IMG/VR virus record: IMGVR_UViG_644736364_000008 | Direction: 5' to 3' (one strand) | Origin: a virus | Lineage: Duplodnaviria; Heunggongvirae; Uroviricota; Caudoviricetes | Length of the DNA: 64,000 nt | In this document: in pieces, positions 13,029 to 63,979 of the stretch | Numbering within the stretch: the first letter of the stretch is position 1 | How the letters are laid out: each line of letters opens with the position of its first letter | Translations under genes and position numbers: made by a program | Notes under the pieces: generated by a model | Told to the model about the DNA's origin: nothing | Seen by the model: only the letters and a program-made list of their open reading frames with translations | Databases searched by the model: none

Positions 13029-13603
13029 ACCGGGCCTCCGGTTGTATCGCCGCCTTTCAGGACGCCAGTATGCTGATGCGCATCAACCACGATCCCGTTA
13101 GAACTCATCGCACCGCCGCCCTGGGTAACGCCGCCATTGATCACTACTTCACTATTAATACGCGTGCGGTCAGCCTCCAGCACAAACTCACTGGTTTTCA
13201 GGGTGATATTGTCGGCAGCCTCAATAACCATGGATTTGATGCCCCTGACATACCAGCGCCCGGTGGCGGGTTCGTATTCAAACCAGCCACCGTCAGGATG
13301 TTCTGTCACGCAGGCGTCCGCCGACGTCGACGGTGGTGCGAACTGATTCGAATAGACAGCGGGCAGCGCAAAGGCGGTCTCCAGATTGCCGCCCAGACTC
13401 AGCAGCACCACCTGCTCACCTTCCGATGGTCGCCACCATGTCCGGGCATTCCCGGCACGCAGGGTCAGCCAGCTGATCCAGTTGGTTTCTAAGTCGCCTG
13501 TTTTCACCCGACAAAGCCAGTTTTCCCGGTCCACTTCGGTGACTACCCCAGTGCGGATCAGGTTGGTGATAAGGCGCATGATTTCGGTTAGTTGTGTGTT
13601 CAT
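13025..13603 (-). CDS. Baseplate spike/assembly protein V
   Basis: 192-aa ORF, first gene of the V-W-J-I-H-G operon. Confidence 0.8.
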   Translation of the reverse strand: MNTQLTEIMRLITNLIRTGVVTEVDRENWLCRVKTGDLETNWISWLTLRAGNARTWWRPSEGEQVVLLSLGGNLETAFALPAVYSNQFAPPSTSADACVTEHPDGGWFEYEPATGRWYVRGIKSMVIEAADNITLKTSEFVLEADRTRINSEVVINGGVTQGGGAMSSNGIVVDAHQHTGVLKGGDTTGGPV

Positions 13604-13741
13604 GAAAATAGACTGCTATATCTCAAAATTGAGAAGTAGCTTTGATAGTTGTATCACGGCTGTCACAAACAACTGGCAAAAAACGACTACTATCTATAAA
13701 TTATTGAGAGTTATCTCATTAACAAAAAAGAAGCTTGGTAA

Positions 13742-15442
13742 ATGGAACACTTAAGACAACTGCAAAATAAAACTTCCCTGTTAGAAAAGTACGGGACTAG
13801 TAACGCACATCTTTTATGGTCATTAGGTCTTTACTTAGATGAATCCGATTTTGATAAGCTAGCATCTGATGGACTTACTGATGGTGGAAACGATAAGAAA
13901 ATAGACTTCATTACCGTAATTAATTCAACGTTATTTATTGCTCAGGGTTACTACTGCAATCAGCAAGCACTTAAAATAGTTGCGCCTGCAAATAAAGCTT
14001 CTGACTTAAACACTGCTTTAGCGTGGATTATGGCAGGCTCAGGAGAGTCTCCAAATGCAAAATTAAGAGCAAAAATTTCTGAGGTTAGAAAATTAATTGA
14101 TGATAACGAAATTGAAGCTGTTGAATTATTATATATCCATAATTGTGCCGAATCTGAGCAGGTTAAAACTGAGCTTGAAACTTGTCGTGACTATCTAGCA
14201 GGTAGATTTGCAGACAAAGAAATTGAGGTAACTTACAGAGAACTTGGTGTTAATAGTCTTGAAAAATTGTATATTGCGCTATCACAACAAATTGTTGTGA
14301 CTGACAATATAAAGTTCAATGGCGAACTTATAAATTCTGTACAAGGTGATGGCTGGACTTCACATGTTGGCTTTGCAAACGGCACTTGGCTAAATTATTT
14401 ATACAAAAATTATGGAGCAGAATTATTTTCTGCTAATTATAGGGGGTTCATGGGATTAAATAAGAGAAGAAAAATAAACTCATCAATTAAGAATACCGCA
14501 GAAACATCCCCAAAAGACTTCTTTGTCTTTAACAATGGTGTATCAATCCTAACAACAAAATTCAACAAAGAAAAAGGGTTGTTGGAAGGAGTTTCAATCA
14601 TAAATGGAGCTCAAACCACTGGTTCTATTGGTTCAGTTCAAGATATACAAAAATTAGATGGCCTAAAAGTCCTTTGTAAGGTTATTGAATGTAATGATGC
14701 GGACAAAGTAAAAAAAATAGTCCAGTATAATAATACTCAGAATCATATTACAACCTGGGATCACTACTCTAACAGCACAGAACAAAAACAGGTGGCAGAA
14801 GAATTTTCCACTCTTGGTTATACATATTCACTGAAACGCGGCTTCGAAAATACTGGTTCTTTATTTGGCATTGAGTCTGTTGCTCAACCGCTGATAGCGT
14901 TACATGGGGATTATGTTAGCGCCAATAGAGGTAAAAACTACGTTTTCGATACAAAATCAGCCTATGACAATGCCTTTCATGATTCGAAAGCCCAGCATAT
15001 TTTATGTGCTTACACTATTTCAAAAGCTATAGAAAAAGTAAAATCTCAAATCCGTGCAAAAGAGAATAAAATTAAAGTAGATGAGGATAACTTATTATTC
15101 CTCCAAAATTTAAAGTCTCGATTCTTTTTAATATCCGTCATCGGAGAAATACTTGAAGAATTAACAGATAAACCTTTGAACAAGAAGAAAATAAAATATA
15201 AATATGATACAGCATTATCTAAAAATAACTCTCTGGATGATTTAATCGACCTTTGGACACCAGTTATAACTGCGATATTACCACATGTTATCCGTGTTTC
15301 AGGTCAAGATTTAACCACCTACTTATCTGTAACAGACAACCCGTTATCTATCGTATCAAAGGAAGTTAAAAACATATTAACATCCTTAAAAGCGTTCCAA
15401 CCGATTGAGCCATTAATTACTCTTTCAAATCACCTTGAATAA
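13742..15442 (+). CDS. Cargo protein, 566 aa, candidate abortive-infection (AIPR-like) protein
   Basis: Low-GC ORF on the opposite strand between V and S; contains FFVFNNGVSILTT...INGAQTTGSIG, reminiscent of an NGxQT core; own AT-rich upstream region. Confidence 0.6.
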   Translation: MEHLRQLQNKTSLLEKYGTSNAHLLWSLGLYLDESDFDKLASDGLTDGGNDKKIDFITVINSTLFIAQGYYCNQQALKIVAPANKASDLNTALAWIMAGSGESPNAKLRAKISEVRKLIDDNEIEAVELLYIHNCAESEQVKTELETCRDYLAGRFADKEIEVTYRELGVNSLEKLYIALSQQIVVTDNIKFNGELINSVQGDGWTSHVGFANGTWLNYLYKNYGAELFSANYRGFMGLNKRRKINSSIKNTAETSPKDFFVFNNGVSILTTKFNKEKGLLEGVSIINGAQTTGSIGSVQDIQKLDGLKVLCKVIECNDADKVKKIVQYNNTQNHITTWDHYSNSTEQKQVAEEFSTLGYTYSLKRGFENTGSLFGIESVAQPLIALHGDYVSANRGKNYVFDTKSAYDNAFHDSKAQHILCAYTISKAIEKVKSQIRAKENKIKVDEDNLLFLQNLKSRFFLISVIGEILEELTDKPLNKKKIKYKYDTALSKNNSLDDLIDLWTPVITAILPHVIRVSGQDLTTYLSVTDNPLSIVSKEVKNILTSLKAFQPIEPLITLSNHLE

Positions 15443-15447
15443 ATAAC

Positions 15448-15474
15448 GGGTGGCCTCCTAGGCCACCCGTTCAT
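15448..15474. terminator. Bidirectional hairpin terminator between the 566-aa cargo gene and S
   Basis: AACGGGTGGCC-TCCTA-GGCCACCCGTT perfect 11-bp stem between convergent stops. Confidence 0.5.
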
Positions 15475-15497
15475 AACTTATTTTTAATCTAAAATTT

Positions 15498-15956
15498 TTA
15501 CGGCTTATTGTTATTAATTAACCATTGATAAAAAACATTCTTAACGTTGTTCTCAATATCATTGTTAATACCCAACAAACGCCGCTCTGCATACCGTACG
15601 TCCGGTCCTTTGCGACTGACGCGATCACGCAGACCGTAATGGTGAACACGGGCAATGCGCTGTACCTTACCTTCAAACTGCACGCTGGCAGAGTCGGCGC
15701 TGGCGGCAGTTTTCAGGTATTTTGTGGTGCGCAGCTTTGCAAACATCTGACGTTTGATACGGCCTTTTTTACTGCGTGCTGTTACCCGTCGCGGTTCATA
15801 GCTGCTGCCGTCAGGGTTGCGCTGCATCCTGATATTCTGCTGCTGTGTCCGGCGAAGTTCCTGCGCCAGCTGGCGCATCATGCGGCTTCTCGAGGCTGGT
15901 TCCAGATTCGCCAGCAAGGCACTCAGCCAGTCGTCCACCTTCTGCAGTTCAGCCAC
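15498..15956 (-). CDS. Tail completion protein S (P2 gpS-like)
   Basis: 152-aa ORF overlapping R; P2 R-S order. Confidence 0.75.
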   Translation of the reverse strand: MAELQKVDDWLSALLANLEPASRSRMMRQLAQELRRTQQQNIRMQRNPDGSSYEPRRVTARSKKGRIKRQMFAKLRTTKYLKTAASADSASVQFEGKVQRIARVHHYGLRDRVSRKGPDVRYAERRLLGINNDIENNVKNVFYQWLINNNKP

Positions 15957-21459: not shown

Positions 21460-23226
21460 ATGAACACCACACTGACACCCGCAGATCTCGATCCCCGTCG
21501 GCAGGCCATGCTGCTGTACTTTCAGGGATACCGCGTAGCCCGCATTGCTGAAATGCTGGGCGAGAAAGTTGCAACCGTTCACAGCTGGAAAAAACGCGAC
21601 AAGTGGGGTGACTATGGGCCGCTGGATCAGATGCAGCTCACCACCGCCGCACGCTACTGCCAGCTCATTATGAAGGAGCACAAAGAAGGGAAAGATTTCA
21701 AAGAGATTGACCTGCTGGCGCGCCAGTCGGAGCGCCATGCGCGGATCGGCAAGTTTAACAATGGCGGCAACGAAGCCGACTTAAACCCTAACGTCGCCAA
21801 CCGCAACAAAGGCCCGCGCCGTCAGCCGGAAAAGAACGTTTTCACCGATGAACAGATTGAGAAGCTGGAAGAAATCTTCCATTCCTCCATGTTCAACTAC
21901 CAGCGCCACTGGTGGGAAGCCGGAAAAACCAACCGCATCCGCAACCTGCTGAAGTCACGCCAGATCGGCGCGACCTTCTATTTTGCCCGTGAAGCCCTGA
22001 TTGACGCCCTGCTAACCGGGCGTAACCAGATTTTCCTTTCCGCCAGCAAGGCTCAGGCCCACGTCTTTAAGCAGTACATCATCGACTTCGCCAAAGAAGT
22101 GGAGGTGGAGCTGAAAGGCGATCCGATGGTGCTTCCTAACGGGGCCACGCTGTACTTCCTCGGCACCAATGCCCGCACGGCCCAGAGTTACCACGGCAAC
22201 CTGTATCTGGATGAATATTTCTGGATACCGAAATTCCAGGAGCTGCGCAAAGTGGCTTCCGGTATGGCTATTCACAAAAAATGGCGACAAACCTATTTTT
22301 CCACGCCATCCAGCCTGACACACAGTGCTTATCCGTTCTGGTCCGGTGCGCTGTTCAACCGAGGGCGCAACAAAGCCGATAAGGTGGACATCGACCTGTC
22401 CCACAGCAATCTGGCCCCCGGCCTGCTGTGCGCAGACGGGCAGTACCGCCAGATAGTCACTGTGGAAGATGCGGTGCGCGGCGGCTGTAACCTGTTCGAC
22501 CTCGACCAGTTGCGCATGGAGTACAGCCCGGACGAATACCAGAACCTGCTGATGTGTGAGTTCGTGGACGATCTCGCGTCTGTGTTCCCACTCAGCGAGC
22601 TGCAGGCGTGCATGGTGGACAGTTGGGAAGTCTGGACCGACTTTCATGCACTGGCCCTGCGCCCGTTTGGCTGGCGCGAAGTGTGGATCGGATATGACCC
22701 GGCGAAAGGTACGCAGAACGGCGACAGCGCCGGATGCGTGGTGGTGGCGCCGCCAGCCGTGCCGGGCGGTAAGTTCCGCATTCTTGAGCGTCACCAGTGG
22801 CGCGGAATGGACTTCCGCGCCCAGGCTGACGCCATCAAAAAACTGACCGAACAGTACAACGTGACCTATATCGGTATCGACTCAACCGGCGTTGGTCACG
22901 GGGTTTACGAGAACGTGAAAGCGTTTTTTCCTGCCGTCCGGGAGTTTGTCTACAACCCCAACGTTAAAAACGCCCTGGTACTCAAGGCCTACGACATTAT
23001 CAGCCACCGCCGTCTGGAGTTTGACGCCGGACACACCGACATAGCGCAGTCCTTTATGGCAATCCGCCGCGCCACCACCGCCAGTGGCAACCGCCCGACC
23101 TATGAAGCCAGCCGCAGCGAAGAAGCCAGCCACGCCGATCTGGCCTGGGCAACGATGCACGCACTGTTTAACGAACCGCTGCAGGGCGAATCCGCCAATA
23201 CCAGCAATATTGTGGAGATTTTTTGA
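21460..23226 (+). CDS. Terminase large (ATPase) subunit (P2 gpP-like)
   Basis: 588-aa ORF divergent from O, upstream of portal. Confidence 0.9.
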   Translation: MNTTLTPADLDPRRQAMLLYFQGYRVARIAEMLGEKVATVHSWKKRDKWGDYGPLDQMQLTTAARYCQLIMKEHKEGKDFKEIDLLARQSERHARIGKFNNGGNEADLNPNVANRNKGPRRQPEKNVFTDEQIEKLEEIFHSSMFNYQRHWWEAGKTNRIRNLLKSRQIGATFYFAREALIDALLTGRNQIFLSASKAQAHVFKQYIIDFAKEVEVELKGDPMVLPNGATLYFLGTNARTAQSYHGNLYLDEYFWIPKFQELRKVASGMAIHKKWRQTYFSTPSSLTHSAYPFWSGALFNRGRNKADKVDIDLSHSNLAPGLLCADGQYRQIVTVEDAVRGGCNLFDLDQLRMEYSPDEYQNLLMCEFVDDLASVFPLSELQACMVDSWEVWTDFHALALRPFGWREVWIGYDPAKGTQNGDSAGCVVVAPPAVPGGKFRILERHQWRGMDFRAQADAIKKLTEQYNVTYIGIDSTGVGHGVYENVKAFFPAVREFVYNPNVKNALVLKAYDIISHRRLEFDAGHTDIAQSFMAIRRATTASGNRPTYEASRSEEASHADLAWATMHALFNEPLQGESANTSNIVEIF

Positions 23227-24307: not shown

Positions 24308-25717
24308 TTACTCATCTACTCTGATTTTTTGTTTTTTATTATTTTGAGTTAAGACATTTATGGTAATAGATGTATACGGATGAAAGTCAGGCACTATACT
24401 TTTAACCTCTCCATTTTCAAGAAAATGATGTGCTATTGAAGGAAATAAATCAGGATCTACAGGATATTTAGCATTAGGATTATGATACATATTTAAACCT
24501 TCTGCCCATGTTTCTGTAATATCGCCTTCTTTCACTTCAAAACTAAATGCTGCTGGATATAATGCCTCTGGGTCATGATCATGGCAGTAACCACTCCTAA
24601 ATAATCTAAGGTCACTTCTTCCAAAACCAGCCAGTTTTCCCATCCGATTAAACTTCGATATAGTACCACTATTAGAACTAAGGACGGCCGAAATATTTTC
24701 AGACTCATCCAAGAAGAAAAAGCCTGAAGGAATTTCCTTTTTCTCAAATTGATGCGATATAATTTTCTTAGTTGCTAAACTGTAACATCCATCTTCAGAT
24801 TTAACATGCTCATAGCGAATACCATAAAGATACTGCCAAAGTGCACTATGGGACCAAATCATAGAGTTTGGTTCATGAAAATCAGCAATTGCGAAAATTA
24901 AAGGATTCCCCTTAACATGTTCTAGATCCCAGTATCGAGTTTTCTTTTTCAGTTTAGAATAGAGAGAACTTCCAAATTTAATCGGCATATAATTCTCTAT
25001 TTTCTCTAGCAATTCTTCCTTACTTTTAGGTTCAGATAGCATTTCAGATGATTGATTAATATCATTCCCTGTTGGATTAACCGTTACAGCTTCAATGCAA
25101 ATAGTATTACCATACTTACGTGCCACATAATCAGGGGCATTAAACTGCCTATCTAGCCAAAAGTGTTCCTCTCGTAAATATGCGAAAAGATATAACTCCC
25201 ATAGCCGGGCATCAAAACCTGTTGTCTGAAACTGCTCTATAAAATTCCCGTCGACATCCTCAAAATGATTCATCATTTCCTTGATTATCCCTGTTGCAGG
25301 CGACCAGTTCGCATATTTACCAAATAATGAAAAATGATGATGAAGTTTATCTGGTGTAACTATAGGTGTGAATAAATCCATTGCTTTATAAGTTTCATCA
25401 CCTTGTGGAAATACTTTTACGTTTAATTTAGTATGCTTCCGCATTAATTTCTTTAGTTTTGCTCGTGCAGAATTCATTTCTGAAACACTAGTAAATAGGT
25501 CAATACATCTATATCTCCCACTTAAGTCTCTTGCTAAAACAATACCGCTATAATCTTCATCGATTTGATCCAATAATAGTGCCCCTAGCAGGAACTCTCT
25601 CGGACTACAGTACCACTCAAACTCATAGCCTAAAAGTTCAGTATTTGGCATTCTGGTCCAATCAACAAAAGCATTAAACCTCTCTTTACTCATTTTTTTT
25701 ATATCAAGAAAAGACAT
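24308..25717 (-). CDS. Hypothetical cargo protein, 469 aa (no recognisable motif)
   Basis: Low-GC ORF between portal gene Q and cos; no P-loop or nuclease motif detectable by eye. Confidence 0.6.
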   Translation of the reverse strand: MSFLDIKKMSKERFNAFVDWTRMPNTELLGYEFEWYCSPREFLLGALLLDQIDEDYSGIVLARDLSGRYRCIDLFTSVSEMNSARAKLKKLMRKHTKLNVKVFPQGDETYKAMDLFTPIVTPDKLHHHFSLFGKYANWSPATGIIKEMMNHFEDVDGNFIEQFQTTGFDARLWELYLFAYLREEHFWLDRQFNAPDYVARKYGNTICIEAVTVNPTGNDINQSSEMLSEPKSKEELLEKIENYMPIKFGSSLYSKLKKKTRYWDLEHVKGNPLIFAIADFHEPNSMIWSHSALWQYLYGIRYEHVKSEDGCYSLATKKIISHQFEKKEIPSGFFFLDESENISAVLSSNSGTISKFNRMGKLAGFGRSDLRLFRSGYCHDHDPEALYPAAFSFEVKEGDITETWAEGLNMYHNPNAKYPVDPDLFPSIAHHFLENGEVKSIVPDFHPYTSITINVLTQNNKKQKIRVDE

Positions 25718-26624: not shown

Positions 26625-26981
26625 TTAATACAGGTTCCGCCACTGATCATCTTCCTGCAAACGCTGGTTCCGATAGAAGATACGCAGGCCTGCTCCTGAC
26701 GGAATACTGCCTCCGCGAAGGAGTAAATCGACCTCTTTCTCGCTGCCATCAAATCCTCTGGACTTCAGCTCATACACGAGCTGCAGTCGCTGATGGTCTG
26801 TAATTCGCTGTTTGTAGTCTTTACGCCGTTTCGGTTTCACCAGGCGTAACCTTGCTGCCAGTTCCCGGCGCTCTTTTTTGCTCATACTGTGCAGGTAATC
26901 GTGCAACTCCTTGTCATCCATGCTGGTAATGTCCGTTCTGGGGTCCCCATCAGCTGATTTATCTTTCTCCTGTTGGTTCAA
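26625..26981 (-). CDS. 118-aa ORF, possibly the displaced C-terminal part of replication protein A
   Basis: Begins at a TTG right at the A stop; becomes in-frame with A if one copy of the 26-bp tandem repeat is removed. Confidence 0.45.
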
Positions 26982-29065
26982 ATTTTCAGCAAGGGGACAG
27001 TTATTGCCACGAGTCCAAGGGGACAGTTATTGCCACGAGTCCAAGGGGCGCAAGCGCCCTGGTCGGCTGCCGCCTCCTGAATGTCAACGGCCTTACGAAC
27101 CATTTTCCACTTCACCGCATGAGTGCAGATCTTGCCCTCTGCAATGGGTGACCAGATGCCATAAATACGAATACCGTGATCGCCATAGGCGGTCGGCTCT
27201 TCGTTGATTTCATAAGCGGTTCTGATGAGGTGATATTTGCGGGGAACCAGTACGCCGCCCTGCTTCATGATGTAGGTGGCAAAACAACCAGCATCAGCAG
27301 CGGCTAGGATGGCATCAAGGCGCGGGTTATCCAGTACCGGCGCACCTGCTTTTTTGTCCCCCTGTTGCCTTGCCGCCTGACCAGCCAGCAATCGCAGTTC
27401 ACGGTAAGCCTGACGCCCCGGAATGCCAAAGAAGCGGAATTGCTGAACACGATGCAGAGACGCCCAGGCATTAACGTATTCAGCGTTATCACGCAGGGAT
27501 TTACCCGTTTCCTTGCTGATCTCGCCAGCCAGACCACGCCCGTCAATGTTCTTACTGATGTATTTCGCGATGTAGCTTGTTGGCGTACCTTTGCGCGGGT
27601 TTATCAGCTCAGACTTAAAGCGTGGTTCCGTGTTATTACCCAGCTCCTCGCGGTCTTCACGAATGGCAAACTTACGCAACAAAGCAGTAATGGCGCGGCG
27701 ATCTTTTTTGCGCATAAAACACAACAGGTGCCAGTGAACTGTACCGTCATGATGCGGCTCAGCCACCCGCACGCCATACCAGCGTAATCCGGCTTTGTGC
27801 ATCGCCTTACGAAATGCAGCAAACATACCGACCAGATAATCACTGCTTTGTCTTACCGTCGCATTTGTCCAGGTCGGGTTGGGCCTGCCGTTATTTAGCG
27901 TGGAATGGAAACGTGACGGACAGGTGATGGTGTAGAAAACGGCGCAGTCACCGCGCATTTCCGCGATAAGCTCCAGACCTTTAACACAGGCCATCATCTC
28001 ATTGCGGCGATGCGCAGGGTTGCTGCTGCTGGCGTTTACCACGTCTTCCATATCCAGCGTGTCGCCGTCTTCGTTCACCAGTTCATGAGAACGGAAAAAC
28101 TCCAGCGACTTACGGCGCTGCTCACGTTTATGCATCACGGCTTCATAGCTGACATAGGGAGATGCTTTTTTGCTGACCAGGCAAACAGCACGCAACTGCT
28201 CTTCCCGCCATTCGCAACGCATCTTCCATAATTTCCGATACCACCAGTCGGCGCATAACATACGCGCCAGCGAACCCGGAATGAGTTCATAAGGCACGGG
28301 TTTACGGCGGTTTCTTTTCCGACGGAGTTGCTCAAACGCAGGCGGGATAACATCCAGACGCAGGGTTTCCGCTGCCACCTTTTCCCATGTTTTGCGGATT
28401 TCTTCTGGCTTAATGTCATCGGTGGCATACAAATCACCACAAGCTGCATCAAGGCACATGCTCATATGCGCGGCGACAAGGGTAGACAGGCGCTTCACCT
28501 GATCCTGACTCATTTCAGGCAGGATCAGCAGGCCGTCCAGCCCTTCATGGCTTGCCATAAAGCGAAAAGAAGTGGATAGCTGACAGTCGCGTACATGCTC
28601 CAGTCGTTCCAGACATGGCTTAATCGTCTCACGCAAATAGCGGGAATAAGCCTTTGGCCTGCCCAGGCTGCTGAAGTATTCAATACGTTGCATCAGCGGC
28701 TTGCTGATATGGGAAGGCTGGGCGTTAACGTCCGCCAGAATGACCATGTCTGGATTAAAACGCTGCTGCTCATGCGCCAGCTTTGCCCGGCTAATGAGCT
28801 TATCCTGCTCCATTTCGCGTTGGACAGGATCACGGGATTCATTAAAGAAATAACGCTCCCAGGCCTGATCACTCAGTGCCTCGCGGCGCAGCTGTTCCTG
28901 CTCGTTATCGGCAGCGTACAGAGTGATCAGGTTTGAAAGCGCAGAAACCGGCGCGACTTCCGCCGGGTCCAGATAAGGGTTAATGGCCTTTTTCGGGCTG
29001 TTCCATGAGAACGCTGCGGCAGCCTCGTTAAAGCCGCAGCAGTTGTTCATATCGGCATGACTCAT
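26978..29065 (-). CDS. Replication initiation endonuclease A (rolling-circle, P2 gpA-like)
   Basis: 695-aa ORF containing the YIAKYISK active-site tyrosine pair. Confidence 0.85.
26991..27048. repeat. Perfect 26-bp tandem duplication (2.2 copies) at the 3' end of gene A
   Basis: AAGGGGACAGTTATTGCCACGAGTCC repeated head-to-tail, then AAGGGG. Confidence 0.85.
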
Positions 29066-32747: not shown

Positions 32748-33767
32748 ATGACTGTCAGAAAACAGCCAAACGGTAAATGGTTGTGCGAGTGCTATCCCAA
32801 TGGACGCAATGGCAAGCGCGTGCGTAAGCAATTTGCTACGAAAGGCGAAGCCATTGCTTTTGAAAGCTTCACAATGGAAGAAGTGAACAAAAAACCATGG
32901 CTGGGGGAAAAGGAAGATCGGCGACACCTATCAGAATTAATTGAGCAGTGGTATTCCCTGTATGGTCAAACACTCGCAGACCCCAAGCGCCTCATAGCGA
33001 AACTTAGAATTATCTGTAATGGTCTAGGCGATCCCATCGCTTCAGAACTGACAGCCGGTGACTTTACGAAATACCGCGAAGCACGGTTAAAAGGTGAAGT
33101 ACGAAATGAAGATGGCACGTTTATGTCGCCCGTTAAGCCCCGCACGGTAAACCTTGAACAGCGCAATCTATCATCTGTTTTTGGTACACTGAAAAAGCTG
33201 GGCCACTGGTCAGCCCCCAACCCGCTTGCTGGGCTGCCAACATTTAAAATTGCTGAGAGTGAATTGGCGTTCCTGACCCCGGAAGAAATTAAACGTCTGC
33301 TGGATGCCTGCGCCGATTCTCAAAGCTCCAGCCTGCTTTTGATTGCAAAAATATGCCTGGCCACCGGCGCACGCTGGAGCGAAGCCGAAAACCTGCAGAG
33401 TCATCAGGTATCAAAATACCGTATCACTTATACCAAGACCAAAGGCAAGAAAAACCGAACTGTGCCTATTTCTAAGGATTTATATGAAGAACTGCCTAAG
33501 AATAGGGGGAAGTTATTCACCCCATGCAGAAAAGCCTTTGAGCGTGCAGTAAAGCGAGCCGGTTTAGAACTACCAGAAGGCCAATGTACCCATGTTCTGC
33601 GCCATACATTTGCCAGTCATTTTATGATGAACGGTGGAAATATACTGGTACTGCGCGATATTCTTGGACATGCCGATATAAAAATGACGATGATTTACGC
33701 TCATTTTTCCCCAGATCATCTTGAAGATGCAGTAACTAAAAACCCATTAGCAACCTTGATGGATTAA
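32748..33767 (+). CDS. int: Tyrosine integrase
   Basis: 339 aa with HVLRHTFASH...LGHADIKMTMIYAHF catalytic-region motifs. Confidence 0.9.
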   Translation: MTVRKQPNGKWLCECYPNGRNGKRVRKQFATKGEAIAFESFTMEEVNKKPWLGEKEDRRHLSELIEQWYSLYGQTLADPKRLIAKLRIICNGLGDPIASELTAGDFTKYREARLKGEVRNEDGTFMSPVKPRTVNLEQRNLSSVFGTLKKLGHWSAPNPLAGLPTFKIAESELAFLTPEEIKRLLDACADSQSSSLLLIAKICLATGARWSEAENLQSHQVSKYRITYTKTKGKKNRTVPISKDLYEELPKNRGKLFTPCRKAFERAVKRAGLELPEGQCTHVLRHTFASHFMMNGGNILVLRDILGHADIKMTMIYAHFSPDHLEDAVTKNPLATLMD

Positions 33768-33771
33768 GCAC

Positions 33772-34995
33772 ATGCGCAACATTATCGAATTAGAACAGAT
33801 ATCGGAAGAACTAAAAAAACATGAACTATTGCAACCCCCATTCATTGCCGAGGGAAAACTAATTTCTGACTTTTCTAAGAGAGTCGAGTGCTATTTAGAA
33901 TTAATTGACTCCATTAGAAATAAATATCCTGACAACGAGATAATTAAACAAGTAAAGATTCGCACAAAATCAATAATATATTTATCTGATAAAATAATAG
34001 AAACTCTTAAGCTATTTTTAATAGGAAATGTTAAAGAAGCTTATAAAAAATTCGATTTGGCAATTACCAAGTCATCAATGCATACTCATCTTTATAAGAT
34101 GACTGTTCCTCTAACTAAATTATGCAACCCACACACCCCTTTATTTCGCGTAAGGAAAAGTGAGTGCATCCTAAAACAAAGAGAAGAATTATTTCATATA
34201 CCATTTAAAAATAGACATTTAGTTAGCGCACAAAGATTTTCTGTATCCGGTCTTCCATGTTTATATCTTGGAACATCAATATTTGTATGTTGGCAAGAAA
34301 TGGGAAAACCTGACTTTGATAAACTTTACATATCTTCCTTCATATCCGATAAAGAAAATTCAAATATAAGAATTTTAGATCTTGGGTACAATTTAACATC
34401 TGCACTTCGTACAAAACCGGGAGATCTTTGGTATTCATTCGAACAAGGTTCAGATGATGATTACGATCTAAATAATGATAATTTCATGGATCAAATTAAT
34501 GATAAAATTTCAAAGTTGATTGCATGGCCTTTAGTCCTTGCATGTAACTATACAAAAGATAATGAAAACGCAAGTTTTAATAAAGAATACATAATACCAA
34601 ACCTATTAATGCAATGGATTAGTAGTGACAGAAACAAAAATATATCAGGGATATCGTATCGATCAACAAAGATATTAAACCAAAAAGATAGCGATATTGG
34701 GATTAATGTAATTATCCCCCCAAAAATAGAAAACATAGTTGAAACCAATGATACCCACTGTCCTGTTTTAAAAAAAATATTTAGAGTTACAAACCCTGTT
34801 TCCTGGACTGTGTTTAGTACACTAGAAGCCACCCCCTATCTATACAAAAATAATTTTAATTTTTCGACCTATAATCCCGCAAAAGGATGGATTGAAGACT
34901 TTGATGAATCCCTTGTTGAACATTATGAAAATACCACTTTTAGAAAAGTTGAACTCCTTATTCATCAAATGATGAAGTATGAATATTTAAAATAA
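33772..34995 (+). CDS. RES-domain protein (407 aa), candidate NAD+-targeting toxin/abortive-infection effector
   Basis: LFRVRK...AQRFSVSGLPCLYLGTSIFVCWQE...IRILDLGYNLTS parallels RES toxin motifs (YRY...GGRWNPP..FPAIYLADS...E...LAVLDLT in MbcT); low-GC; 4 bp after int stop. Confidence 0.6.
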   Translation: MRNIIELEQISEELKKHELLQPPFIAEGKLISDFSKRVECYLELIDSIRNKYPDNEIIKQVKIRTKSIIYLSDKIIETLKLFLIGNVKEAYKKFDLAITKSSMHTHLYKMTVPLTKLCNPHTPLFRVRKSECILKQREELFHIPFKNRHLVSAQRFSVSGLPCLYLGTSIFVCWQEMGKPDFDKLYISSFISDKENSNIRILDLGYNLTSALRTKPGDLWYSFEQGSDDDYDLNNDNFMDQINDKISKLIAWPLVLACNYTKDNENASFNKEYIIPNLLMQWISSDRNKNISGISYRSTKILNQKDSDIGINVIIPPKIENIVETNDTHCPVLKKIFRVTNPVSWTVFSTLEATPYLYKNNFNFSTYNPAKGWIEDFDESLVEHYENTTFRKVELLIHQMMKYEYLK

Positions 34996-37115: not shown

Positions 37116-37940
<825 letters not shown>

Positions 37941-38880: not shown

Positions 38881-40830
38881 ATGATTGTTCTAAATCAGAT
38901 TAACTCCTCACTTTTGTACAATGTCGCTTACAGGTATACCATGAAATCCGAGACGCTAACTGTCCAACAACTTTTTCAAGACCGCCGACAATACTGTGTT
39001 CCATTCTATCAACGTGCCTATGTATGGACTCAGCAAGACCAGTGGTCAGCTCTACTGGAGGATATCCTAGAGAAAGTACAATCCCGGCTCTCGGGTACAA
39101 AACCAACTCCCCATTTCCTTGGTGCGGTTGTACTGGAACCTCAATCAAAAAAAGGATTATTAGGTGTAGATTCCATACATATTATTGATGGTCAGCAACG
39201 ATTGACCACTCTTCAATATGTTCTGGCATCCATCCGATTAGCATTACGTGCTACGGATCTTTCCAGCTTAGAGGCTCTCATTTCGCCTTGCCTGAAAAAC
39301 TCAAACGAAGACACAATGCGAAATAAAGAAGTAGAACGCTTCAAACTGTGGCCAACTTTTCGGGATCAAACTCATTTTATTCAAAGTTTTAATGTTGAAA
39401 ATATTGACGATCTCCGGGACGTATTCTCTGATAGTTTCACGCAGCATGGTACGTTGCGTAAGCATTTTAATCACCCGCCATCACTAGAAGCATTATGTTT
39501 TTTTACTGAAGCCTTTATAAAATGGATTAAAATAGAAAACCACTCACCACAAGAAAATGCTGTAGCTCTAATTGAGGCTGTCTTAACAGATCTGAAACTG
39601 GTAAGCATATTTCTCGAAGCTGAAGATGATGCCCAAATAATTTTTGAAACATTAAATGGGCGAGGGGCGGAACTTCATGCTACGGATCTTATTCGCAACT
39701 ATATCTTTATGTGCGCTGAGCATGAAAATATTAATGCTATTGAATTATATGAAAATGAGTGGAAGAGCTTTGAAGATAAATACTGGTCGGAAAAACAACG
39801 CCGTGGACGTATTAATAAACCACGCATGGAGTGGCTAGTACATGCGACATTGCAATCAGAAAGGCAACGTGAAATTGATCTGTCTCGCCTTTACAATGAG
39901 TATCGTGATTATGTAAGTAAGGACTTGTCTTCACAACGAGCAGATCTGCAAGTAAAGCGCCTCAAACAATATGCATCACAATATAAAGAATTGGTTGATG
40001 GTTTTGGCACAACCCCCATCTCACACTTTGGATATCGCATCGCAGACTATGATGTGACGACACTTTATCCGCTTGCTTTGTTCATTTCGATAGCTAACAT
40101 CGCTGATGATGAGAAAGCAGCCATGTATAATGATCTTGTCTCCTACGTAGTACGAAGAGCCGTATGTGGCCTGACGCCAAAGAATTACAACAATGTATTT
40201 ATGAATGTATTGCGGCACTTGGCTAAAACGGAAATTTCCAGTGTTGAGTTACGTAATATCCTCAATAACTTAAATGGCGAAGCCTCACGTTGGCCTGGTG
40301 ACTCAGAATTTCTCAACGCTTGCATCAATGCTCCACTTTATCCTGGCAGGCTCGACGCACCGAAAATGCGCTCAATGTTAACGGAACTTGAAAGAGAACT
40401 TTGTCGCCAAGTAAAGACAGAAAAGCCTGATGTTCCAAATCTTTCTAATCTCGATATCGATCATCTTATGCCTCAAAGTTGGTATTCCTGTTGGCCTCTC
40501 GAAAATGGTCGTATGGTGACAAATTCAGATGCTACGGTATTGAACCAAATTGTTCTGTCTGGAACCGATCTTACCCCTGAACAGCTACTGGTAAGGAAAC
40601 GGCAACAAGCGATATCTACTTTGGGAAATCTAACTTTGCTTAACCTTAGCGTAAACCGTTCTGTTCAGAATGCTGTATTTCTGAAAAAACGTGATGCTCT
40701 CATCGTCCACACCAATCTACGACTGAACATTCCACTTATAGTTAAGGATAAATGGGATGAGGATGAAATCCTGGAGCGGGGTAAAAAGTTGGGGGAAATT
40801 GCATTGAAAGTATGGCCAAAACACGATTAA
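38881..40830 (+). CDS. GmrSD-family type IV restriction endonuclease (DUF262 + DUF1524/HNH-like)
   Basis: N-terminal IIDGQQRLTTLQY (DGQQR motif) and C-terminal DIDHLMPQSW ... GNLTLLNLSVNRSVQN His-Me finger motifs; alternative start at 38941. Confidence 0.75.
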   Translation: MIVLNQINSSLLYNVAYRYTMKSETLTVQQLFQDRRQYCVPFYQRAYVWTQQDQWSALLEDILEKVQSRLSGTKPTPHFLGAVVLEPQSKKGLLGVDSIHIIDGQQRLTTLQYVLASIRLALRATDLSSLEALISPCLKNSNEDTMRNKEVERFKLWPTFRDQTHFIQSFNVENIDDLRDVFSDSFTQHGTLRKHFNHPPSLEALCFFTEAFIKWIKIENHSPQENAVALIEAVLTDLKLVSIFLEAEDDAQIIFETLNGRGAELHATDLIRNYIFMCAEHENINAIELYENEWKSFEDKYWSEKQRRGRINKPRMEWLVHATLQSERQREIDLSRLYNEYRDYVSKDLSSQRADLQVKRLKQYASQYKELVDGFGTTPISHFGYRIADYDVTTLYPLALFISIANIADDEKAAMYNDLVSYVVRRAVCGLTPKNYNNVFMNVLRHLAKTEISSVELRNILNNLNGEASRWPGDSEFLNACINAPLYPGRLDAPKMRSMLTELERELCRQVKTEKPDVPNLSNLDIDHLMPQSWYSCWPLENGRMVTNSDATVLNQIVLSGTDLTPEQLLVRKRQQAISTLGNLTLLNLSVNRSVQNAVFLKKRDALIVHTNLRLNIPLIVKDKWDEDEILERGKKLGEIALKVWPKHD

Positions 40831-57964: not shown

Positions 57965-59698
57965 TTAAAGCGAGCGGATCCCGTAGGACTCAATGTGGTC
58001 AGACAGCGTGTCTTCTTTCTCGTACAACATGGCTCTGCCAACCGCCATAATCAGCGCAACTGCACCATCGATTTTGTTTTCCGCCTGCTCTTTGACGGGT
58101 TTCACCACATCATCGTTACCCGGAATGGTTTTGCCGACCACGTTGCCGATACACCAGGTCATGATGGGATTGCCATCATGATGAAAGCGCCCCGATTCAA
58201 TTGCCGCTTCCAGCTCTTTCATCGGGTCGGACATGTTGGTGTAGTTCTGAATGATAGTGATGGGGTTCAGGTCTTCATCAGCAAGGTCATGTGACAACCC
58301 GGTCGCCCCGAAGGGGTCGATGGGTGACTCACTGACCGGGCTGATTTTGTTCGCCGCTTTGGCCTCCTCGAGGATGTAGCGATAATCCACCTCCGCACCA
58401 TCGGTAACGGTCAGAACGCCCATTTCCACCCATTTCTGAAAGCGTTCGGCTGTCCGTCGATCTTCATTTTTCTCGACGCTGTACACCGTGTCATACGGTA
58501 CCCAGAAACGCGGGGCCACACTGTAGTAATGCGTTTTACCGTCAATCTCGCGGGTATAAAGTCGCGCCATGCTGTTCATATCCAGCTTACGCGCCAGGTC
58601 AAAGGCCAGAATGCACGGCTGCCCCTCGAACTGCTCAAGGGTCAGTGATTTATCCTCGCAGCTCTGCCAGCTCACCAGGTTGAAATACGCCGAACGCGCC
58701 GACACCCAGATATTGAGGTGTTTTGTTTTAAAGACGTTTGCCAGACGGGCGTTATTTTTCGCACGCTGCTGCTGACTTAACAAAAATTCGCGATAAACCG
58801 ACACGCCAATATTTGGATTGGCTTTTTCCAGCACCTGCGGGTCGGTCCAGTCGTCACCTTCATCAACGGTATAGATGATCCCGAACAGTTCATCGTTAGG
58901 CACCGAGCCATTGAGCATCTCGATGACTTCCCGCCGCTTGTCGTAGCACGGCCCCTCAATGTTGTACCCGGCGGTGGTGATAGCCCACATCAGTGGCTGA
59001 CGTCGCGCCCCCATCCCGGTAAGCATCGTGGTGTAAAGCGCATCGGTGGCGTGCTCGTGATATTCATCCACCACCGCACAGTGGGGTGATGAACCATCAC
59101 CGGGGTTACCGATCAGCGGTTCAAACCGCGCGCCATCCTCCGGACGGTTCATGTTTGAGGCGTTAACCTCAATCCCGAACGCTTCCGTCAGCATGGGTGT
59201 GCGTTTACACATCAGTCGAGCCGGGCGAAAGACTTCCCACGCCTGTTTCTCTGTCGTGGCACCGGAATACACTTCCGCGCCAAACTCGTTATCACAGGCA
59301 AAACAATACAGGGCAACACCGGCAGAGATTGCCGATTTGCCGTTCTTACGGGGGATTTCGGTATACACCTCCCGGAAGCGGCGCAGCCGGGAGCCTTTAT
59401 TGACCCAGCCAAACGCGCAGCAGATCACAAAGAGCTGCCACGGCTCCAGCGTGATGGGCATCCTCTTAAATGCCCACTCACCCTTGGTGTGCGGCAACAG
59501 CTGAATAAATTTGGCGGCCCGTTCAGCCAGGTCCTTGTCGAAGCGGTAACGAAACGACTTACTTTTTTCCGCCATCAGGTCATCAAGATGGCGCTGGCAG
59601 GCCTGAATCACAAACTGGCAGGCCACAATCTTTCCGCGCACGACATCCCGGGCATACTGATTGGCAGCATTTACGTTGGGGTAAGATTTCCGGCTCAT
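57965..59698 (-). CDS. Terminase large subunit
   Basis: 577-aa ORF upstream of portal, overlapping the small subunit stop. Confidence 0.85.
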
Positions 59699-60198
59699 GA
59701 TTCGATGATTTTCAGAAACGGGTTAGTGGCTTTCTTCTGCCCCGCCAGGCCAATCAGACGCTGACGGCTGCTGGGGTCGAGTCCGAGCATTGCCCCCGTG
59801 CTGCTCATCTCGGACTCCTGTTCTTTTTTGGCTGTCAGCTCCGGATTTTTGACCCTGCCGCCCATTGCGCCGGTGATGGTATTGCCCTGTATGGCAATAT
59901 TTTTCACAGCACGTCGCCAGAACTCATAGGCCACGCACCACCGCTCAAGCACCGCGAGGTCAGTCACGCACAGCAGGCCCTGACCGCAGAGTTCTTTGGT
60001 TGTCAGTTGCCACATGATCGTGGCGAGAGGGAGATCTTCTTCAGCGAACCACTCCGGTGGCTCAACACCTTTGATGGGCGTAAAAACAGGTTCATCTTTG
60101 TTCAGGGCTCGCTTGCCGGGGTTTCCGGCCAGCGCCTTGCGCGCCGTTGGCTTGGGGCGACGCCCGGAACGCCCCGCCGTTCCAGCCATATGCGGCAC
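59695..60198 (-). CDS. Terminase small subunit
   Basis: 167-aa ORF immediately upstream of the large subunit. Confidence 0.65.
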
Positions 60199-60314: not shown

Positions 60315-60665
60315 TCACTTCAGTCGTTCACGGGCCGTCTTCGCCTTATGACACGGCCAGCACAGGCTCTGCAGATTGCAGTCTGCATCAGTGCCGCCAT
60401 GCGCTTTAGGGATGATGTGGTCAACGGTTTTCGCCTCACGCACCACACCGACATGCAGGCACAACTGACACAGGCCTTTGTCACGCTTCAGCACGCGCGC
60501 GCGGATAACATCCCACTTCGAACCGTAGCCGCGCTGGTGACGGGATTGTCCTGGCTTGTATTGTTTCCAGCCTTCGCTTTTGTGGCTTTCACAATAGCCT
60601 GACGGATCAGTGGTGGTTTGGCGGCAGCCGCGAACGCGGCAGGCTTTTGGGGTTCGTGGGGGCAT
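60315..60665 (-). CDS. HNH endonuclease (terminase-associated)
   Basis: Cys-rich CxxC ... DHIIPKAHGG ... N ... CWPCH motifs; position just upstream of terminase genes. Confidence 0.85.
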   Translation of the reverse strand: MPPRTPKACRVRGCRQTTTDPSGYCESHKSEGWKQYKPGQSRHQRGYGSKWDVIRARVLKRDKGLCQLCLHVGVVREAKTVDHIIPKAHGGTDADCNLQSLCWPCHKAKTARERLK

Positions 60666-60767
60666 TTAAAGTGGGATCTAACTCTAATAATTTAAAAAAT
60701 TTAATTGGGTCTTGATATTAATCACATAGACTCAATGCTCTTTAGTTCTTACATAGGTGGTTGTATT

Positions 60768-61208
60768 ATGAGTATCCCCAGTTTAGATGTTCATAAAGTT
60801 GTTAAGTGCGCAGAGCATAAAAAGGCTTTAGATGCAATATCTCTCAAACTTAAGAATAACATTATTGACTCAAGCTCTGAATACGATTTTCTTGGCGACA
60901 CAATAATTTTCAATAAAGATAAAAAAAATAGGTTAACCCTCAAACTTTCAACATATGAACTAGAACTTATTTTCAAAGAAACACTGCTAGTCATTGATGA
61001 AGCTCCTGTATTGAAGTTTGCTGCCATTGACCCAACCGATGAAAATAACAACGAGCTGATTGATTTATTTTTATCCAAAGGTGGATTTATTTATATTAGA
61101 GAATACAAATCCGAGCCACATTATGAGTATGGCGACACTTCTCTATTTTTACATATACTTGACGCTACTCTTAAAGAGCTTAAATCTGCAAACAAAATAT
61201 CCTATTAA
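60768..61208 (+). CDS. Hypothetical moron protein
   Basis: AT-rich ORF on the opposite strand (track 60705-61208; AGGTGG RBS before the internal ATG at 60768). Confidence 0.45.
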   Translation: MSIPSLDVHKVVKCAEHKKALDAISLKLKNNIIDSSSEYDFLGDTIIFNKDKKNRLTLKLSTYELELIFKETLLVIDEAPVLKFAAIDPTDENNNELIDLFLSKGGFIYIREYKSEPHYEYGDTSLFLHILDATLKELKSANKISY

Positions 61209-61314
61209 ATAAATTTTTGCTAACATAGCCCCGCGCCATGACAAGATTTTCTGTTCTAGATGCAAGGGCTATGTGTGAATATCTATAAACAAAAACCCCA
61301 TCCGGTGATTTTTG

Positions 61315-61566
61315 TCATTTTTTAGCCATCTCAATTGCGGCATCAAAAAGTCGTTCAAGAATAAAATCAGGGTACTGTAATTTTTCTTGCTCGATATGAA
61401 GCTCATAAATTTTCCCTTCCCACTCCCATTTAAAATTAAATCCAGAAGCAGAAGGTGCGAAATGTGTTTTAGCTTTAGGGTTAGCGTAACCAGCAACAGT
61501 CAACACATCAAACTTAAAATCTTGAGGTTTAATACGCATAATCATATCCTTTGCCAAGTTCATCAT
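61315..61566 (-). CDS. Hypothetical small protein (83 aa)
   Basis: AT-rich ORF between the lysis cassette and the HNH/terminase genes. Confidence 0.4.
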   Translation of the reverse strand: MMNLAKDMIMRIKPQDFKFDVLTVAGYANPKAKTHFAPSASGFNFKWEWEGKIYELHIEQEKLQYPDFILERLFDAAIEMAKK

Positions 61567-61636
61567 TATTCTTCTCGATTATAAAACAATGAATAAAATC
61601 ATTAAAGCATAGACGTTAAATATCCTCAAAATGTGA

Positions 61637-62074
61637 TTAGTTGGGACATTGCGTCCTGATATACTCCTGCAAGTAATTGACCTGTGAGGTTATCTTGTCG
61701 ATTCCACTTCGGAGACGGTAATAATGGAGTTCAGCATCTGCTGTAAGTCTAGGGCTTTCTCCATCGCCCATGCCGCTGGCTCCGGTCGTTGACTTTGTAC
61801 AGGTGGCGGCGACTTGCAGGCGCTTATGCCCAGCAGAAACATCAGCACGAAGACTTTCGATAGTCGCATTAGCATCAGCAAGCTCCTTTGTATATCTGGC
61901 ATCGAGTTCAGCTACATTACGTTGACGCTTCTGCATATCAGCGATGATGGATGTGGCTTTATCGCGCTGTACTTTGTAGACGATGGCGTCATCACGGTAA
62001 TTATCAACAGCCCATGACAAGCAGACGATGATGCAGATAACCAGAGCGGATATAATCACCGTTACTCTGCTCAT
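61637..62074 (-). CDS. Rz: i-spanin Rz
   Basis: [23 protein letters not shown]... closely resembles lambda Rz. Confidence 0.8.
61690..61869 (-). CDS. Rz1: o-spanin Rz1 lipoprotein, embedded in Rz in the +1 frame
   Basis: Embedded ORF with signal peptide and lipobox (FLLGISAC) followed by a Pro-rich segment. Confidence 0.6.
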
Positions 62075-62547: not shown

Positions 62548-62839
62548 TTTTCACCCCTGTCAGTCGTTCCCAGAAGTACGTCAGTGCAACCGAACCCATC
62601 GCACCACTAATCCCCGCAGTTGCGAGAATCATGTAAATACTGAATCCACTTTCGATACTGATTAGGCCACCAATAACACCGGTGAATCCTGATACAACTA
62701 TCTGAGCGAGGGCATTTATCCAGCTCCACGTTGCTTTACTCTGCTTCACATCAATCAGGTAACGGACAAGCCCCCCCCAACCTGCGATGATCAGCAAAAC
62801 AAGCCAGAACGCTCCGGCAAGATTCTCTTTTTCGTGCAT
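62534..62839 (-). CDS. Putative holin
   Basis: ORF 62534-62938; internal Met followed by multiple TM segments; overlaps endolysin start. Confidence 0.55.
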   Translation of the reverse strand: MHEKENLAGAFWLVLLIIAGWGGLVRYLIDVKQSKATWSWINALAQIVVSGFTGVIGGLISIESGFSIYMILATAGISGAMGSVALTYFWERLTGVKNAKS

Positions 62840-62990
62840 ATGAATAGCCGCAGTTTCGCCTCCGACAGAAAATCGGAGCGTGAAATGATATGTTGATTTA
62901 TTATTAATTCGAAAATTACATTCTAATTCATCAGGCATTGATGATTTTATAATAATAAAGGCCGTTCGTTACGGCCTTTATTATTGATAT

Positions 62991-63326
62991 TTATTTTACA
63001 TCCCAAGGTAGTTCCTCAAGAGAGAAGACTAATTCATTATCAATAATTTCGTATTCTGCATAACCTTCAACCTCTCCTGAGAAGTTATTGTCAACGCATC
63101 CTTCATAATAGCTATATGGTGCTATAAAGTGAAACCCATATTCATCTATCTCTGTGATTTCAAAATTGTAGTAATCGTAAGAATATCGAATATCATCATC
63201 AGAAATAGAACTAAGTACATAGTTATTAAATTTATCGGAATGCTTAACGATAAGTTCTGACAACGCGTCAAGATTCTCTGGAGAGATATTTCCTAACGGT
63301 AATCTGTACTCAACGGCATTAATCAT
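62991..63326 (-). CDS. Highly acidic 111-aa protein
   Basis: AT-rich ORF between Q and the lysis genes; about 24 Asp/Glu versus 7 basic residues. Confidence 0.5.
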   Translation of the reverse strand: MINAVEYRLPLGNISPENLDALSELIVKHSDKFNNYVLSSISDDDIRYSYDYYNFEITEIDEYGFHFIAPYSYYEGCVDNNFSGEVEGYAEYEIIDNELVFSLEELPWDVK

Positions 63327-63511
63327 ACAACCTCCTTTTTAACTGATATGAGGTTATATAATGTGTTTCAGTACAAGTAAATAAAAACCCGCTCAACAGC
63401 GGGTTCGTGAAAATTATCAACGGCAGACATACAAAGCCCATCGTTGAGAAAATCTTATCCATATTTTTTGAAAAATGCAAGCTTCATGTCACTATCTTCG
63501 GCGAAAATCAC

Positions 63512-63979
63512 TTATCTCGTCACCTTTCTCAATTGTGTTTCAGCATATGCTTCTTCCTGCCAGCACTTTGTTACTAGTTTATCAATTACGTCTGCATATC
63601 CTTTGTACCACTGATAATCAGTCAGGTCTGGAACCAGCTTCTGGACATGACGTCGTGCCAGTGTAGTCGGTAAACGGCTAAACCGGTTTCCATTGCAACG
63701 CCCACAAGTCTTATAAACAGGCGTGCCATGAAGCCGGGTTCTTTTTTCATCCAGGACAATACCTTTACCCTTACACCCTCTGCACGCCGTGCTGACTTCT
63801 CCCTTGCCATGACAATGCTGACACAGTTCCTTCACCCACTCTTCTTTGATAACGGATTCCCCGCTTCTGGAATGTTTCACCACTTCGCGCAATACATTAT
63901 GAAATCCAGTACCAGTACAATGCTCACAGCGAGCCTTACTTGCCGCAGACCTGGAATAATCAGCAAAGGCAAAATTCAC
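63512..63979 (-). CDS. Q: Late-gene antiterminator Q (lambdoid)
   Basis: 155 aa with CEHCTGTG ... CQHCHGKGE ... CRGCKGKG ... CGRCNG zinc-binding motifs; directly upstream of the lysis cassette. Confidence 0.65.
   Translation of the reverse strand: MNFAFADYSRSAASKARCEHCTGTGFHNVLREVVKHSRSGESVIKEEWVKELCQHCHGKGEVSTACRGCKGKGIVLDEKRTRLHGTPVYKTCGRCNGNRFSRLPTTLARRHVQKLVPDLTDYQWYKGYADVIDKLVTKCWQEEAYAETQLRKVTR

Follow-up and report, generated by a model that had tools for sequence, protein, structure and literature searches.

Two candidate moron cassettes stacked between the lysis and packaging genes of an HK97-type lambdoid prophage of Escherichia coli

Do two small genes that separate the lysis cassette of a lambdoid prophage from its packaging module form a functional pair, and are they cargo of the kind known as morons? 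The question is raised by a stretch of 64,000 nucleotides (nt) of the IMG/VR record IMGVR_UViG_644736364_000008 (Caudoviricetes), here called the window, in which an AT-rich island is placed between the Rz spanin gene and the genes for an HNH endonuclease and the terminase. The island holds a plus-strand open reading frame (ORF), here ORF A, and a minus-strand one, ORF B. An initial annotation, made from the sequence alone, had taken them for a convergent gene pair and for candidate genes of lysogenic conversion or defense. Our analysis favors, with a probability of roughly 0.7, an island of two independent, horizontally mobile moron cassettes stacked between Rz and the HNH-cos-terminase region.

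ORF A and ORF B are genuine genes under purifying selection. In every pairwise codon comparison, synonymous divergence is far above nonsynonymous divergence, and the dN/dS ratios are 0.32 to 0.40 for ORF A and 0.05 to 0.20 for ORF B (for unsaturated pairs, 0.32 to 0.40 and 0.05 to 0.18, respectively). Homologs of ORF A (30 to 94% identity) were found in about eight lineages, and those of ORF B (33 to 92% identity) in E. coli, Enterobacter asburiae, Citrobacter freundii, Pantoea latae, and metagenomes; length and termini are kept down to 30% identity for A and 33% for B. The initial annotation had placed the ORFs correctly, A at 60705-61208 (from TTG) or 60768-61208 (from ATG) and B at 61315-61566 (83 amino acids [aa]). 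Its preference for the ATG of ORF A at 60768 agrees with a ribosome-binding site (RBS; AGGTGG, 60755-60760) 7 nt upstream, with the RefSeq protein, and with all homologs. The 83-aa version of ORF B, in contrast, is unsupported: the start is most likely the ATG at 61539 rather than that at 61566, because every homolog has 72 to 74 aa, the RefSeq protein has 74 aa, and an AAGGA motif (61551-61547) is placed 7 nt upstream.

Could the ORFs nevertheless be spurious or decaying frames in an AT-rich spacer? Both are ORFans with few relatives (6 clusters among 1.84 billion representative proteins in a profile search with A, about 15 among 5.8 billion representatives for B), and ORF A is often frameshifted (see below). 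However, pS greatly exceeds pN in all pairs, the RBSs are good, and the conservation of length and termini at 30 to 33% identity extends across genera. With dN/dS below 1, we rejected spurious ORFs; this explanation, even when counted together with a toxin-antitoxin pair (see below), is highly improbable.

The island is set in the late region of an HK97-type lambdoid prophage of E. coli. On the minus strand, it is preceded by the genes for the antiterminator Q, a 111-aa protein, holin, endolysin, and Rz/Rz1, after which comes ORF B; past the plus-strand ORF A, the minus-strand order resumes with the HNH endonuclease, a P27-family small terminase subunit (TerS), the large subunit (TerL), portal, protease, and capsid. 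The statement that both ORFs interrupt the minus-strand late region is accurate for ORF A only, as ORF B shares the orientation of the lysis and packaging genes.

To see whether A and B belong together, the window proteins were placed on 46 related loci by tblastn and compared with tables of called genes. ORF A is invariably on the strand opposite to HNH, TerS, and TerL, between the lysis cassette and the HNH/terminase genes, in each of its lineages. ORF B, found in about 10 lineages, is invariably the next gene after the Rz/spanin gene and on the same strand; at a few of these loci the preceding spanin-like gene has no match to the Rz of the window, and the terminase types downstream differ among the lineages. 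A occurs without B at loci L003, L011-14, L018-23, and L025-27, and B without A at loci L004-10 and L032-39, while the two are found together only in the E. coli lineage of the window and in the approximately 90%-identical L024/L031. Other A lineages have different small neighbor genes, such as those for a 76-aa coiled-coil protein (L003/L019) and a 119-aa protein (L025), and in other B lineages the next gene encodes DUF2158 or is another small antisense ORF. A and B are unrelated families that move independently and do not form a coupled pair. Because of their separate occurrence and their convergent arrangement, a toxin-antitoxin or obligate two-gene system is ruled out; a toxin-antitoxin pair was also rejected on the grounds that terminators lie between the convergent genes, that the genes are not cotranscribed, and that neither matches a toxin-antitoxin family. 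The convergent gene pair of the initial annotation is thus not a unit but two families that live apart in most lineages.

The interval itself is a variable cargo slot. Among 5426 complete E. coli genomes, 4113 match the HNH and/or Rz flanks, and the island is present in only 101 to 104. Between flanks of about 90% identity, other genomes hold a gene for a DUF2441 protein, a DUF6979 gene with a 67-aa ORF, a gene for a 229-aa hypothetical protein, or SfI gp63, and in strain APEC O2-211 the bor homolog iss is found antisense, like ORF A, between a homologous Rz and an approximately 90%-identical HNH gene. The suggestion that the interval from Rz to the terminase genes is a moron site is borne out by these replacements. 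In other lineages, the lysis-to-terminase slot contains several small genes of alternating orientation (L004, 6521-7012; L007, 5308-5505; L025, 6620-7730; L019, 5622-5909 and 6487-6717), including those for DUF2158, ORFs of 65 to 95 aa, the 76-aa coiled-coil protein, and a 221-aa antisense ORF. Such moron stacking seems to be general at the lysis/terminase junction.

The constant place of ORF B next to the spanin gene leaves room for another view, namely, that it is not free cargo but assists the lysis cassette, for example, by timing lysis or in association with the spanins. It is always 55 to 105 nt downstream of the Rz/spanin gene on the same strand, even though the Rz proteins of the approximately 10 lineages are just 42 to 53% identical to that of the window. 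Yet a conserved -10 element and a terminator belong to ORF B itself, and its product has no transmembrane segment, signal peptide, or lipobox; moreover, phages with a homologous Rz overwhelmingly lack ORF B, as the flanks are matched in 4113 E. coli genomes versus 101 to 104 with the island, and no deposited phage genome has it. A lysis accessory is, accordingly, a rather improbable identity for it.

Morons are defined by a deviant GC content and by a promoter and a terminator of their own (PMC3594210). The island is inserted between flanks that are differently filled elsewhere, and its composition deviates: interval 60666-61636 has 32.9% GC by composition count, a sharp drop from the 48 to 59% of the adjoining genes, as the initial annotation had noticed. 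By gene, the values are 32.4% for ORF A and 36.0% for ORF B (that is, 32 to 36% for the cargo) and 58.4% for HNH, 58.7% for TerS, and 48.4% for Rz. Windows of 500 nt that are as AT rich as the island make up 4.8% of the 64 kb.

Hairpin terminators are present between the two genes, at 61223-61274 and 61289-61315. The first hairpin is stable on either strand (fold z-scores of -2.45 on the plus strand and -3.45 on the minus strand). The second is weaker than its counterparts in the other ORF B lineages, all of which have a canonical GC hairpin with a T run 2 to 5 nt past the stop codon. A hairpin is likewise found downstream of ORF A in every lineage; those of L026 and L014 are canonical terminators.

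Promoter evidence is good for ORF B and weak for ORF A in the window. A perfect sigma-70 -10 hexamer (TATAAT, 61583-61578) is situated 38 nt before the ATG of ORF B, and the same hexamer recurs 35 to 41 nt before the start in three lineage groups (the window; L004/L007/L032; L010/L033), between which the rest of the upstream spacer cannot be aligned; the -35 elements upstream of ORF B are weak. By our estimate, TATAAT at the same position in three independent groups is very unlikely to arise by chance. For ORF A, a promoter of its own is inferred because it is the sole plus-strand gene for many kilobases. The candidate, GTGGGA-16-TAAAAA (60671-60698), aligns to TTGAGA-16-TAAACT upstream of the homologs in L018, L019, and L023, where the site at the aligned position passes the consensus scan in L019, and the homologs in L025 (TGtTATAAT) and L026 (TATAAT) have a perfect TATAAT 31 to 32 nt before the ATG. 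Overall, A and B each look like a promoter-gene-terminator cassette, i.e., a classical moron. As signs against cargo, the initial annotation had named ORFs without promoters and RBSs that are missing from all related prophages with nothing in their place; what we found are RBSs for both genes, a conserved -10 element for ORF B, and replacement cargo in the relatives. Close to that element, position 61575, which is 3 nt downstream of it and about where transcription would be expected to start, is T in the window and G in ATCC 11775, UTI89, and APEC O1.

Several results weigh against the reading of the island as two functional cassettes. (i) A consensus scan upstream of ORF A in the window yields no site of at least 9/12, the aligned element being degenerate there, and promoter-like hits in the region are no commoner than in shuffled sequence. 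(ii) The window proteins have no credible match in Pfam, PHROGs, NCBIfam, or PADLOC. (iii) The AlphaFold2 (AF2) model of ORF A, built from 3 sequences, is unusable (predicted local distance difference test score [pLDDT], 39), and fold searches with ORF B give no significant match, only generic two-layer alpha/beta ones. (iv) An ORF A allele that is 1 nt shorter occurs in 44/101 carrier genomes, which in the listed examples have no annotated coding sequence (CDS) there; broken copies outside this set include P0003 and L024, and variants with a 3-nt in-frame loss or another frameshift were also seen. ORF A is dispensable to the host lineage: it is not needed by the host, because it is frameshifted in 44% of the carriers, including the model uropathogen UTI89.

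The carriers deserve a closer look. The window is 99.9 to 100% identical to chromosomes of extraintestinal pathogenic E. coli, among them MS7163, the type strain ATCC 11775, UTI89, and APEC O1, and judging by the carriers' strain names, with no typing, the host lineage appears to be of the sequence type 95 (ST95) kind. The prophage is almost clonal, with 1 to 3 single-nucleotide polymorphisms (SNPs) in 11 kb across these four strains. The A8 allele of ORF A is matched in 57/101 carrier genomes. By sequence, the deletion was pinned to the A8 tract in UTI89 and APEC O1; the 44 genomes with the shorter allele also include NU14, UM146, and PMV-1, and A7 is found in the independent, approximately 90%-identical lineage L024 too. 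The tract is mutation prone, for which we considered both decay within lineages and switching that resembles phase variation. Chromosomal coordinates suggest that the A7/A8 distribution is mostly clade structure; the prophage SNPs do not separate clade-specific from recurrent changes, because there are just 1 to 3 of them in 11 kb. ORF B is intact in 100/101 carriers (151 nt examined), the sole broken copy being that of APEC O1, in which C>T at 61420 produces a stop codon (W40*).

How does the island compare with known systems? Lambda bor and iss occupy the same slot in the same antisense orientation as ORF A, and cargo of this type is independently transcribed and classed as morons (PMC3594210). 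Unlike Bor and Iss, ORF A has no match to the Lambda_Bor Pfam family and no signal peptide, lipobox, or membrane segment (maximum 19-residue hydropathy, 1.1). Its product, with a computed mass of 16.7 kDa and a pI of 5.4, is predicted to be soluble and cytoplasmic and, as such, could not serve as an outer membrane serum resistance factor. The ORF B product (8.7 kDa; pI 6.7) is likewise predicted to be soluble and lacks all three export features (maximum 19-residue hydropathy, 0.44). Membership in the Bor/Iss family was rejected for both ORFs, which have no Pfam or NCBIfam match, no lipobox, and no hydrophobic segment. The idea of lysogenic conversion is not supported: the lack of export signals excludes a surface factor of the Bor/Iss type, and ORF A is broken in a large part of the carriers. 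HK97 gene 15, the archetype moron, which acts in superinfection exclusion, is likewise small, shifted toward AT, and equipped with signals of its own, and it is inserted between conserved late genes of an HK97-type phage; gp15 is encoded in the tail operon and has been postulated to insert into the inner membrane (PMC3594210), whereas A and B are soluble, unrelated to it in sequence, and located at the lysis/packaging junction. The SfI gp63/DUF6979, DUF2441, and 229-aa proteins, encoded in the identical interval of Shigella and E. coli prophages, are unrelated to A and B; their genes are all co-oriented with the late operon, and none is functionally characterized in the sources that we examined.

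The closest experimentally characterized analog of the ORF A layout is, by our comparison, taiEcA of phi80, a resemblance that does not amount to membership. Tai homologs are found "predominantly upstream of the packaging module" in lambdoid phages; taiEcA is antisense between Rz and cos and is expressed in the lysogen, its expression being lowered when Q is expressed, and the small late-strand gene atiEcA encodes the antidote of the TaiEcA tail assembly inhibition defense (PMC11364771). The island resembles phi80 in that the Q-dependent late operon is broken up between Rz and the packaging genes by an antisense gene, next to which is a late-strand gene of about 75 aa. On this model, A and B could be a cognate defense and counterdefense in a "noncontiguous operon," in which A would block the assembly of competitors and late B would neutralize A. 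The shared interval and logic speak for such a pair (PMC11364771), as does APEC O1, the only genome with a nonsense mutation in ORF B, which also has a frameshifted A; furthermore, each sampled A8 genome has two CDSs annotated under the match, consistent with an intact B. However, the majority of the lineages with either gene lack the other, and A and B are not co-inherited; tai and ati diverge and overlap at their 5' ends, whereas A and B run toward each other and are separated by terminators; and ORF B, which is equipped with a conserved -10 element and a terminator of its own, is intact in 43/44 genomes with a broken A. TaiEcA has 204 aa versus 146 aa for ORF A, the hhalign probabilities are 0.09% for the A family versus TaiEcA and 0.5% for the B family versus AtiEcA, and tblastn found no homology in phage records, phi80 included. 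We rejected membership in Tai/Ati on the absence of homology, and a pair that works by the same logic is improbable.

What, then, might the proteins do? The homology and structure searches suggested by the initial annotation recovered homologs for A and for B and a credible family or fold for neither. Its remark that the ORFs have no recognizable motifs is in keeping with Pfam, PHROGs, PADLOC, NCBIfam, and an Rfam scan of the region, all without a match, and searches with all members of the two families in Pfam, PHROGs, and PADLOC gave marginal hits only. Against PADLOC-DB v2, ORF A matches only PDC-M24A (E value of 0.016, over 30 residues of the 181-position model); such matches occur in 3/8 family members (E values of 0.006 to 0.016; best, 0.0057). 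ORF B has no match in PADLOC-DB v2, and profile searches of the Protein Data Bank (PDB) with A and B gave hits at chance level. The two families are very rare. A word-indexed search with ORF A found 4 clusters among 5.8 billion; in 185,579 species-representative genomes, A is absent and B is present in Pantoea latae only; and tblastn searches of 50,697 phage records (the collection that includes phi80) and 72,556 plasmids recovered neither. Accessions WP_000026993.1 and WP_001220676.1 are mentioned in no paper that we found. The invariant positions of the ORF A alignment are mainly hydrophobic, with a few charged residues (D7, K18, D22, K29, D34, K104, and E112) among which no catalytic motif is recognizable. 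The AF2 model of ORF B, of moderate quality (pLDDT, 68), has an alpha-beta3-alpha arrangement, in which a helix is followed by a three-stranded sheet and then by a long helix at the C terminus. Both products look like binding proteins rather than enzymes, that of ORF B probably being a small alpha/beta binding protein. By analogy, the role that we consider the most likely for ORF A, if only tentatively, is that of a lysogen-expressed, binding-type factor in competition between phages (exclusion or defense).

A different purpose would be the phage's own infection, with A and/or B as anti-defense proteins or inhibitors for host takeover; in this case ORF B would encode a small inhibitor that is produced late. 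ORF B is under strong purifying selection and almost always intact (100/101), ORF A keeps its position beside HNH/cos in all lineages, and, being about 0.5 kb from cos, near the first-entering end by analogy with lambda, it could be transcribed immediately on entry. On the other hand, neither ORF matches an anti-defense family, the fold similarities are below significance, the order of genome entry is assumed from lambda, and an antisense position within the late operon is the arrangement not of early genes but of morons that are expressed in the lysogen (bor/iss and taiEcA). Such a function is doubtful, though less so than a Tai/Ati-like pairing.

If A and B are two separate morons, as we favor, their expression may be pictured as follows. 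ORF A is a unit of RBS, gene, and hairpin terminator that would be transcribed against the Q-dependent late operon, as are iss/bor and taiEcA; its product would be made from the repressed prophage, and convergent late transcription may damp it after induction. ORF B would be expressed weakly in the lysogen and, late in infection, strongly by antiterminated read-through, and its terminator may shield the HNH and terminase genes from ORF B's own transcription. One may go further and suppose that ORF A founds a new family of single-protein prophage defense or exclusion factors, expressed in the lysogen and silenced by convergent Q-dependent transcription, with A8 as a slippage-prone on/off switch, and that ORF B represents a second new family of small, late-expressed inhibitors. 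A switch of this kind would explain why prophages that are almost identical are divided 57:44 between an intact and a frameshifted ORF A. The combined proposal is speculative, and we think it less probable than a role of ORF A in phage competition taken by itself.

The slot is known to house serum resistance genes (bor/iss) and, from more recent work, assembly-blocking defenses (Tai), and two more conserved, unannotated families in it are reasonable candidates for new proteins of phage-phage conflict. The carriers are clinically important (UTI89 and APEC O1), and the lineage supplies ORF A alleles in natural on and off states for comparison. At the same time, small ORFan cargo is of a familiar type and does not overturn current understanding. 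The features of the island and its flanks are compiled in Table 1.

TABLE 1 Island and flanking features, with positions in the 64,000-nt window
Feature	Position	Strand	Remarks
TerL	57965-59698	-	Family matches and RefSeq
P27-family TerS	59695-60198	-	Family matches and RefSeq
HNH endonuclease, HK97-type packaging module (flank)	60315..60665	-	Family matches and RefSeq
ORF A leader/promoter region, AT rich	60666..60767	+	RBS AGGTGG; candidate weak promoter
ORF A, 146 aa	60768..61208	+	WP_000026993.1; uncharacterized family antisense to late operon
A8 homopolymer, codons 52-54 of ORF A	60921..60928	+	Frameshift site: A8 intact, A7 broken
Long inverted repeat between ORF A and ORF B	61223..61274	.	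9-bp perfect arms, 34-nt spacer
A5-stem-T5 hairpin directly after ORF B stop	61289..61315	.	Bidirectional-terminator-like; common to convergent A and B
ORF B, 74 aa	61315..61539	-	WP_001220676.1; uncharacterized family next after spanin gene, late strand
ORF B leader	61540..61636	-	RBS AAGGA, -10 TATAAT, weak -35
Rz i-spanin, end of lysis cassette (flank)	61637..62074	-	ORF list, family matches, RefSeq

Within Rz, the gene for the o-spanin Rz1 (61690-61902, minus strand) is encoded out of frame; its product has the lipobox LLGISAC, and the RefSeq records viewed have no separate annotation for the gene. Another AT-rich island (62616-63724) carries, between Q and the holin gene, the 111-aa ORF (62991-63326, minus strand; 33% GC) as a third moron-like cassette. 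Its product is very acidic, with a pI of 4.05, matches phrog_13663 (function unknown) over the full length with an E value of 9e-54, and corresponds to the hypothetical protein WP_000606308.1.

The first half of the window is an apparent P2-like prophage, with genes for a GPA replication protein (26978-29065), a gpP-type terminase (21460-23226), and an integrase (32748-33767). Two AT-rich ORFs there, of 469 aa (24308-25717, minus strand) within the element and of 407 aa (33772-34995, plus strand) beside its integrase, have no Pfam match at an E value of ≤1e-5 and are candidate cargo or defense genes of P2-type hot spots. A 566-aa protein with an AIPR (abortive infection phage resistance) domain (PF10592; E value of 1.6e-25) is encoded within this apparent P2-like prophage at 13742-15442 on the plus strand, in an AT-rich island at 13453-15703. 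A broad AT-rich stretch (about 37.8 to 40.9 kb) between the two prophage regions contains genes for a GIY-YIG protein (37116-37922, minus strand) and a GmrSD type IV restriction enzyme (38881-40830, plus strand; PF03235 and PF07510).

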